Positions 41,881 through 42,322 of a DNA stretch of 64,000 nt are shown in pieces. Origin of the DNA: a virus; IMG/VR virus record IMGVR_UViG_3300020438_004435; one strand, written 5' to 3'. Every line of letters starts with the position of its first letter. Position 1 is the first letter of the stretch. The position numbers were made by a program, and so were the translations under genes. The notes under the pieces are model-generated. The model did not search any database and was not told the DNA's origin. It was given only the letters and a program-made list of their open reading frames with translations.

Positions 41881-42258
41881 TTATTTGGCCGTTCCGTCTA
41901 TAATAGCTGTCCATGTATGCTTGTTACTATTGAACCTATCTATCTTTCTTTGCTCATTTTTCATAAGTCCAATAGCTCTCTCCTTTTCCACTTTACGTTT
42001 CAAAGATGGTTTGATATAATATCTTTTATCTTTAAGTTCTTGGATTATGCCTGTATGTTTCATCATACGTCTGAATCTTTGTAGTGCTTGATCTATACTG
42101 GATCCTTCAGGTACTTTAACACCTCTCGGTTGTCCTTCAATTTGATAATCCTGTCTAGTAAGTCTTTTCCTACGTTTGAAATTTTTTTTCTTGAAATCGT
42201 GATTTCGGGAGTTAGTATCCGATTGATTCCTGTGCTTCTGGTTTCTACTGTATGCCAT
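41881..42258 (-). CDS. rpsU: Phage-encoded ribosomal protein bS21 with basic N-terminal extension
   Basis: VKVPEGSSIDQALQRFRRMMKHTGIIQELKDKRYYIKPSLKRK matches the S21 pattern (AL.RF.R...G...E...R..Y.KPS). Confidence 0.88.
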   Translation of the reverse strand: MAYSRNQKHRNQSDTNSRNHDFKKKNFKRRKRLTRQDYQIEGQPRGVKVPEGSSIDQALQRFRRMMKHTGIIQELKDKRYYIKPSLKRKVEKERAIGLMKNEQRKIDRFNSNKHTWTAIIDGTAK

Positions 42259-42288
42259 TCGTTTGTTTTATATTATACGTTATTTATA

Positions 42289-42322
42289 TATAAATATACA
42301 AAAAATATTTGAACTAACCAAA
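42289..42322 (-). promoter_or_regulatory. Bacteroidota-type promoter for bS21, overlapping TATTTATA
   Basis: TTTG (42322-42319), 20 nt, TATATTTA (42298-42291). Confidence 0.7.

Follow-up and report, generated by a model that had tools for sequence, protein, structure and literature searches.

To our knowledge, Bacteroidia have the best-studied ribosomes with a hidden anti-Shine-Dalgarno (anti-SD) sequence, and the autoregulation of rpsU, the gene for ribosomal protein bS21, is the only natural use of this arrangement known to us. bS21 is also by far the commonest ribosomal protein in phages. In ribosomes of the Bacteroidia type Tyr54 of bS21 stacks on A1534 and redirects the 16S rRNA tail, together with the anti-SD, into a pocket formed with bS18 and bS6 (PMC7797042). 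The Y54A substitution in bS21 of Flavobacterium johnsoniae raises translation of strong-SD mRNA approximately 3-fold, Y54A or a C-terminal truncation gives 3-5-fold better translation of strong-SD mRNAs, and Y54A costs little on SD-less mRNAs (PMC9976891). The anti-SD becomes free in 30S subunits lacking bS21 (PMC13000457). The presence of phage bS21 genes in head modules, their late co-expression and their association with Bacteroidota hosts have already been published, in a study that recorded Tyr, Phe or His at position 54 in 61 of 61 proteins and concluded that the anti-SD stays blocked (Chen et al. 2022; PMC9723584). Basic N-terminal extensions of phage bS21 have been described as well (PMC7162821), and substitution of host bS21 by the phage protein has been proposed (PMC6375957).

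Here we analysed a 64,000-nucleotide stretch of virus DNA (IMG/VR record IMGVR_UViG_3300020438_004435), referred to below as the window, for which an earlier note had proposed that a phage-encoded bS21 unmasks the anti-SD of Bacteroidota ribosomes in favour of late phage translation. The locus encodes a bS21 homologue that has glycine at the position of Tyr54 and is extended at both ends, its own mRNA has no SD, and the adjacent head genes are SD-led. An SD-unmasking role for this protein is plausible.

The bS21 gene and its place in the head module

The window contains 55 open reading frames, all on the minus strand, and has a GC content of 33.9%. Its head module runs in the order terL, T4-type portal, two unknown genes, prohead protease, two small unknown genes, bS21, scaffold-like protein, capsid and PhoH (Table 1). 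The earlier note had placed rpsU directly upstream of the scaffold and capsid genes, and this is where it lies: it adjoins the scaffold gene, which is followed by the capsid gene, and is itself downstream of the prohead protease gene. This position inside the terL-portal-protease-scaffold-capsid block is not peculiar to the window, the same order being found in more than 100 loci. Outside the head module, two tail-sheath paralogs lie side by side (1282 aa at 22629-26477 and 900 aa at 26510-29212), and both carry their sheath domains at the C-terminus, preceded by long N-terminal regions without a family match.

Table 1. Coordinates of the bS21 locus and neighbouring head genes in the window.
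Feature	Position	Strand	Evidence or remarks
Large terminase (terL)	46952..48535	-	Terminase_6N on the identical protein in L001; 56% identity to immuto terL
T4-type portal protein	45067..46926	-	Pfam PF07230, E 1.7e-69
Prohead protease (Peptidase_S77)	43036..43662	-	Pfam, E 1.8e-33
Promoter-like class A motif TTTTTGTATATTTATATATAAATAA	42279..42307	-	GTATATTTAT at 42290-42299
SD-less, A-rich bS21 leader	42259..42278	-	Anti-SD pairing energy
Phage bS21 (rpsU homologue), 125 aa	41881..42258	-	Pfam PF01165, PDB bS21 chains and PHROG 21469
bS21 N-extension (residues 1-46)	42121-42258	-	
bS21 S21 core (residues 47-96)	41971-42120	-	
bS21 C-tail (residues 97-125)	41884-41970	-	
Codon of Gly97 (equivalent to Tyr54 of Bacteroidia bS21)	41968..41970	-	Ungapped HMMER alignments
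Codon of Trp116 (invariant; in C-tail motif)	41911..41913	-	Family alignment column
Terminator-like hairpin, 10-bp stem then U8, just past bS21	41774..41805	-	RNA fold -10.3 kcal/mol, z -2.07
Class B motif TATTTATA upstream of scaffold gene	41765..41772	-	Precedes seven genes in all
Scaffold-gene SD (AGGAG)	41669..41673	-	Leader energy -7.3 kcal/mol
Acidic scaffold-like protein, 373 aa	40540..41661	-	Position and composition; syntenic with acidic pre-capsid protein of immuto
Capsid-gene SD (AAGGAG)	40531-40536	-	Leader energy -8.3 kcal/mol
Major capsid protein, Gp23 family	38738..40522	-	Pfam PF07068, E 4.9e-80

Residues 47-95 of the 125-aa product match the Pfam family Ribosomal_S21 (PF01165) with an E-value of 1.5e-16 and a score of 60.2 bits, against a curated cut-off of 27, and the protein also matches PHROG 21469 and 38 solved bS21 chains in the PDB at E<=1. 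An AlphaFold model with a mean pLDDT of 76.6 places helices at residues 55-69, 71-79 and 84-113, and contains both the helical hairpin and the long C-terminal helix that follows the KPS motif. When this model was searched with Foldseek, bS21 chains ranked top with weak matches (E 0.2, probability 0.94). The open reading frame at 41881-42258 is a genuine bS21 homologue, in a virus-specific form with a two-helix core.

The position equivalent to Tyr54

HMMER aligned residues 47-98 of the phage protein without gaps to residues 4-55 of the 63-aa chain 9i5v_9, with AIGL opposite AIYV, and residues 48-96, again without gaps, to residues 5-53 of the F. johnsoniae chain 7jil_z. Because both alignments are ungapped and Tyr54 stands 14 residues after the Lys of KPS in both reference chains, Gly97 is the equivalent of Tyr54. 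The replacement of Tyr by Gly that had been suggested from the sequence alone is therefore borne out by a proper alignment, in which no tyrosine is retained at that position, and the signature aromatic residue of the Bacteroidia-type, anti-SD-sequestering bS21 is absent.

The same position is occupied by Gly, Ala, Ser, Thr, Arg or Asn across the doubly extended family described below and is aromatic in none of its members, a variability which suggests that the specific (stacking) role of this residue is gone. The phage protein continues for 28 residues after position 97 (pI 10.0, with the invariant Trp116), compared with about 10 weakly basic residues after Tyr54 in the Bacteroidia type. It might be that Trp116, or a Tyr or Trp found at +17/+18 in relatives, takes over the stacking of Tyr54.

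A doubly extended bS21 family in marine viruses

A basic N-terminal extension of about 45 aa had also been noted; by our measurement it comprises 46 aa with 14 Lys/Arg and a pI of 11.3, and its aromatic residues are Tyr3, Phe22, Phe27 and Tyr38. Sequence searches recovered a family of 110-145-aa proteins of this kind, almost all of them marine metagenomic, and the Atlas clusters of the extended form are 95-100% viral. The family combines the basic N-terminal extension and a lengthened third helix of approximately 30 residues with a C-tail whose Trp and Ala are invariant (motif W-[TV]-A-I-x-x-G-x-A). Among the sequences recovered, proteins of this doubly extended form (N-extension plus C-tail with invariant Trp) make up a marine clade restricted to viruses, and position 54 is aromatic in none of them. 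In the AlphaFold model, short N-extension strands run next to strands from the C-tail, which suggests that the two extensions together constitute one extra structural element. The proximal segment of the N-extension, hydrophobic-x-hydrophobic-P-G before the first strand, is shared by the extended clade and by phage bS21 proteins of 76-86 aa, and is missing from 65-aa and host-like bS21 proteins.

Leader, promoter-like motifs and terminator

The leader of the bS21 gene ends in TAAAACAAACGA-ATG and its pairing with the 16S tail has an energy of +0.8 kcal/mol, in agreement with the SD-less leader that had been read from the sequence. The corresponding energies are strongly favourable for the scaffold and capsid genes (Table 1) and for the gene just upstream of bS21 (-13.3 kcal/mol). 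A host-type promoter had been proposed in front of this leader, and this claim does not hold as described. The string TTTG-N20-TATATTTA is present, but the canonical Bacteroidota promoter TTTG-N19-21-TAnnTTTG is not enriched, occurring once in the 64-kb window against 1.6 expected by chance, and TATATTTA lies within a phage motif of approximately 20 nt, GTATATTTATATATAAATAA, that is repeated upstream of five other genes. The unenriched canonical pattern and the repeated phage motif speak against a host-type promoter for bS21.

The promoter-like motif immediately before the bS21 leader, here termed class A, recurs in the same or nearly the same form upstream of the genes starting at 1960, 3901, 5407 (DNA ligase), 9383 (PolA-like) and 48535 (terL), and all six class A genes, bS21 included, are SD-less. 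A second motif, class B, stands upstream of the scaffold gene; six of the seven genes behind class B are SD-led compared with none of the six behind class A (Fisher p 0.0047). Neither motif showed conservation in the distant contigs G001 and G003. We also considered a T4 late promoter, as TATAAATA occurs in sense orientation inside class A, and rejected it on the grounds that class A also precedes the ligase and PolA-like genes; because these genes carry the motif too, class A is assigned to no temporal class. The leaders of the ligase gene and of an 80-aa gene at 3659-3901 (5408-5480 and 3902-3975, respectively, both on the minus strand) each combine the class A motif with a second block of approximately 35 nt, AATAAG...AAG.TC.AGAGTGCTAATAAAA, just before the start, and this block may be a shared operator or RNA element.

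Just past the bS21 gene lies a terminator-like hairpin (Table 1), which was missed by a consensus scan because its stem is GC-poor. Since the hairpin and its U8 tract come after the gene, and the gene has its own promoter-like motif, bS21 looks like a separate transcription unit. This bears on the idea that the protein acts off the ribosome, as a basic nucleic-acid-binding protein or a packaged internal head protein that keeps only the S21 fold. Such a role would suit the location of the gene between protease and scaffold, the strongly basic character of its product and the extensions, which appear in the model to fold together as a small extra element. We nevertheless regard it as very improbable, given that the S21 core is well conserved, KPS motif included, that the protein has no capsid-targeting leader, that the gene has a promoter-like motif and terminator-like hairpin of its own, and that incorporation of a phage bS21 into Escherichia coli ribosomes has been demonstrated (as cited in PMC9976891).

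SD use in the window and the adjoining genome

Where GGAG occurs within 40 nt upstream of a start in the window, it falls at -13 to -9, the classical SD spacing, in 19 of 22 cases. An SD motif precedes 39% of starts compared with 5% of internal ATGs, and from this position and enrichment the SDs of the window look functional. Their distribution is uneven: 24 of the 35 genes in the tail/head block (9439-52595) are SD-led compared with 2 of 19 elsewhere in the window (Fisher p 4.7e-5). The SD-less blocks contain three phage tRNA genes (Arg-TCT, Glu-TTC and Ala-TGC; 2035-2531) and, at the high-coordinate end, a Zeta-toxin/deoxynucleoside-kinase-like P-loop protein (56557-57261).

Approximately 36 kb of the same genome outside the window start could be followed in public contigs that carry identical proteins (L162, L165 and L250). 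In this adjoining region 21 of 50 genes are SD-led, including those for gp32, UvsX, RNR, GroES/GroEL and glycosyltransferases, and the genes for DnaB, PolB and a clamp-loader-like protein are SD-less. The same three contigs also encode a 7-deazaguanine set (QueC, QueD-like and GTP cyclohydrolase I), and a large, strain-variable glycosyltransferase island lies in this genome approximately 36 kb before the window start.

The expectation that SDs favour late genes thus needs qualification. The major head genes do bear SDs at classical spacing, but the SDs on gp32, UvsX, RNR and GroES/EL make a strict late/early split too simple. SDs belong to abundant or later-acting products, for which 'late' is too narrow a term, and what governs SD use may be the level of expression.

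bS21 form and SD use across the phage lineage

The comparison drew on 131 IMG/VR loci that carry phage bS21 genes, most of them with a head module of the window type; clades were assigned from a TerL tree, in which the extended clade comes out as monophyletic. The genome-wide SD fraction was scored as the share of starts with GGAG or GAGG at -17 to -5, for which internal-ATG controls gave 3-9%. It was 1% in the Flavobacterium phage immuto, which has no bS21, and likewise 1% in G012, a member of a clade with a plain 65-aa bS21 and Arg/His54. Two genomes reached 10%: G011 (Phe54, 78 aa), from a clade of 76-81-aa proteins with Tyr/Phe/His54 that corresponds to the type of Chen et al. 2022, and G005 (Arg54, 82 aa), from a marine clade of 82-86-aa proteins. 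The N-extension in these two clades is approximately 15 aa long. The three genomes with a doubly extended bS21 (G001, G003 and the window) had SD fractions of 34-39%.

The orthologous head genes are graded in the same manner. Those of immuto and of the 65-aa clade lack SDs altogether; both intermediate clades have SDs on scaffold and protease genes in 100% of cases and on capsid genes in 65-100%; and in the extended clade SDs are found on scaffold and capsid genes in 100%, on PhoH in 93% and on portal in 62%. A scaffold SD was present in 100% of loci from clades with an N-extended bS21. The bS21 leader itself was SD-led in none of the 50 extended-clade loci (mean +0.9 kcal/mol), in all of which the adjacent scaffold and capsid genes were SD-led.

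These comparisons do not support the notion that loss of Tyr54 alone lies behind SD use, since the sister clade with Tyr/Phe/His54 has SDs (on scaffold, protease and capsid genes) and the 65-aa clade with Arg/His54 has none. Judged by the aligned proteins and gene starts, the N-terminal extension is the feature that follows SD use better than residue 54. In support of the earlier note's interpretation, immuto, a syntenic phage without bS21, is essentially SD-free. Within one lineage SD use follows bS21 form, a trend across approximately five clades that lacks statistical independence, given the monophyly of the extended clade in the TerL tree. None of these phages encodes bS18 or bS6, and bS21 is therefore the sole pocket component that they supply.

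Two further patterns were seen in these genomes. SD-like motifs are rarer at starts (1%) than at internal ATGs (4-9%) in immuto (L260-L267) and in G012 (L268-L276), and for this reason both appear to avoid SD-like sequences. The hosts of immuto- and G012-like phages are said to avoid such sequences as well. Phages of the Bacteroidota host Cellulophaga have been described as devoid of SDs (bioRxiv 2021.04.21.440840). Separately, phages of another lineage (L071, L072, L075 and L076; bS21 at ~9992-10183 in each locus) encode a host-like 64-aa bS21 with a KAIY signature, the leader of which has a strong SD (TAGGAGA, -9.6 kcal/mol); the other 11-14 genes of each locus are not SD-led, an arrangement like that of the autoregulated host rpsU.

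The published model for phage bS21 is that it replaces or tops up host bS21 in late infection (PMC9723584; PMC6375957; PMC7162821). Applied here without any specific link to SDs, which would then serve some other purpose or work by another route, that model is favoured by the aromatic residue 54 of the sister clade and by the 65-aa clade, which indicates that a phage bS21 can be useful without SDs. What it leaves unexplained is the rise in SD fraction from 1% to 39% with bS21 form, the SD-less bS21 leader among SD-led head genes and the variability of position 54, and we consider this reading unlikely.

Host of the lineage

A Bacteroidota host, which the earlier note had taken as its premise, is the most likely one at the level of the lineage, on the strength of synteny with immuto and of type IX secretion (T9SS) sorting domains in relatives. 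By capsid, the closest cultured relative is the Flavobacterium phage vB_FspM_immuto (MW353176), with 61% identity. T9SS type A sorting domains scored above the Pfam cut-off at the C-terminus of proteins of approximately 1050 aa in three of the five large extended-clade contigs. Both intermediate clades include contigs with such domains, as does the genome of immuto; none was found in the large proteins of the window. One such protein, of approximately 1050-1080 aa with the domain at its extreme C-terminus, is conserved in G001 (L102:3791-7039) and its relatives and recurs in the lineage. When GroEL was searched by tblastn, the top matches were mostly to Flavobacteriales (57-58% identity compared with 53-55% for others); in a GroEL tree the long phage branch falls outside Bacteroidota. 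Taken from the genomes of relatives, the evidence makes it most likely that the lineage infects Bacteroidota, or at least the FCB group.

The Microcystis phage Mel-JY01 (L159, 9188-9415) belongs to the same lineage and has the same head module, with a 75-aa bS21 that carries Lys54. Its structural genes have weak GGAG motifs, it has no T9SS domain and it was recorded on a cyanobacterium; our literature search found no paper on this phage. Given Mel-JY01, a few members of the lineage may have other hosts.

The host question matters for interpretation, because SDs and a non-aromatic position 54 would be quite ordinary in a host that does not sequester its anti-SD, be it an FCB-group bacterium from outside the Bacteroidia or some other marine bacterium that uses SDs, and SD strength would then simply reflect expression level. 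Lys or Arg at position 54 is usual outside Bacteroidia, for example in E. coli-type chains, abundant non-structural genes of this phage are SD-led too, and Mel-JY01 is on record from a cyanobacterium. Against such a host stand the T9SS type A domains in extended-clade relatives and in the related Flavobacterium phage, and the fact that more than half of the genes, replisome genes included, are SD-less with A-rich leaders; we judge it distinctly unlikely.

A possible mechanism for selective translation

What is observed at this locus and in its relatives is that the gene encodes a bS21, that this protein has lost the tyrosine and gained extensions, how SDs are distributed, and how these features vary together among relatives. 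Our preferred reading, to which we assign a probability of roughly 0.45, is that the phage has a naturally occurring bS21 with which the anti-SD remains usable, or which stabilises the SD:anti-SD helix, in either case favouring the SD-led mRNAs of the phage. Phage bS21 may in this way re-tune host ribosomes toward phage messages.

The proposed sequence of events would begin with the bS21 mRNA, which, having no SD, could be read by the ordinary SD-blind ribosomes of the host. The phage protein would then replace host bS21 or join 30S subunits that lack bS21, after which the bS21/bS18/bS6 pocket would no longer retain the 3' tail of 16S rRNA, or the SD:anti-SD helix would be stabilised by the basic extension. 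Phage mRNAs with strong SDs, which comprise approximately 39% of window genes and every major head gene, would be preferentially initiated on such ribosomes. With more and more ribosomes converted, the SD-less bS21 mRNA would itself be translated less, so that the process would be self-limiting and would mirror the autoregulation of host rpsU. Incorporation into the ribosome, unmasking of the anti-SD and the timing of these steps are what we infer.

More tentatively, the doubly extended bS21 could turn SD-blind Bacteroidia ribosomes into SD-reading ones and so provide a private translation channel with built-in negative feedback, in which the length of the N-extension, rather than residue 54 alone, would set the commitment of a genome to SDs. 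If true, this would be a natural case of a virus reprogramming ribosomal start-site selection, and would explain why bS21 is so often the ribosomal protein that phages carry. The series from no bS21 (1% SD) through the plain form (1%) and the short extension (10%) to the double extension (34-39%) is well suited to the F. johnsoniae reporter and cryo-EM system.

Comparison with known systems

Three aspects of this locus are new: a widespread marine bS21 clade without an aromatic residue 54 and with a C-tail, a graded link between bS21 form and SD use within one phage lineage, and the consistent lack of an SD in front of the phage rpsU. Our literature search found no paper stating the aromatic-less marine clade, the graded SD link or the SD-less phage rpsU.

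Among described systems, the freshwater bS21 phages of Chen et al. (2022, ISME Commun, PMC9723584), which have Bacteroidota hosts and for which substitution into host ribosomes is the proposed role, likewise carry bS21 within a terminase/portal/protease/capsid module; they belong to the same TerL lineage and share the proximal N-terminal 'x-I-V-P-G' extension. Unlike that type, the present protein carries Gly97, its N-extension is far longer and it adds a C-tail in which a Trp is invariant; SDs precede approximately 39% of genes here compared with approximately 10% in a complete genome of the Chen 2022 type. The rpS21 of huge phages is similar in having an N-terminal extension, and was described without an SD link, an analysis of position 54 or a C-terminal tail (Al-Shayeb et al. 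2020, PMC7162821).

The Pelagibacter phage HTVC008M is not close, as a search of the phage collection at E 1e-3 gave no match to it. It infects an alphaproteobacterium, in which we know of no anti-SD sequestration. This marine T4-like phage encodes a bS21 (Mizuno et al. 2019, PMC6375957) that is reported to enter E. coli ribosomes (as cited in PMC9976891). Immuto (MW353176) resembles the window in its syntenic head module, 61% identical capsid, TATTTATA-type motifs and T9SS cargo, and differs in that its complete genome has no bS21, at the head-module position or elsewhere, and has SD motifs at 1% of starts.

Host bS21 of F. johnsoniae (Jha 2021, PMC7797042; McNutt 2023, PMC9976891) is of the same family and has the same KPS-anchored third helix, and in both systems SD dependence would couple the supply of bS21 to the state of the ribosome, as it does in the autoregulation of F. 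johnsoniae rpsU. The host protein is 64 aa long, has Tyr54 and is made from an mRNA with an extended SD, whereas the phage protein is 125 aa long, lacks the tyrosine and is made from an SD-less mRNA. Because the phage mRNA has no SD and the tyrosine is absent, the sign of regulation would be inverted in the phage relative to the host.
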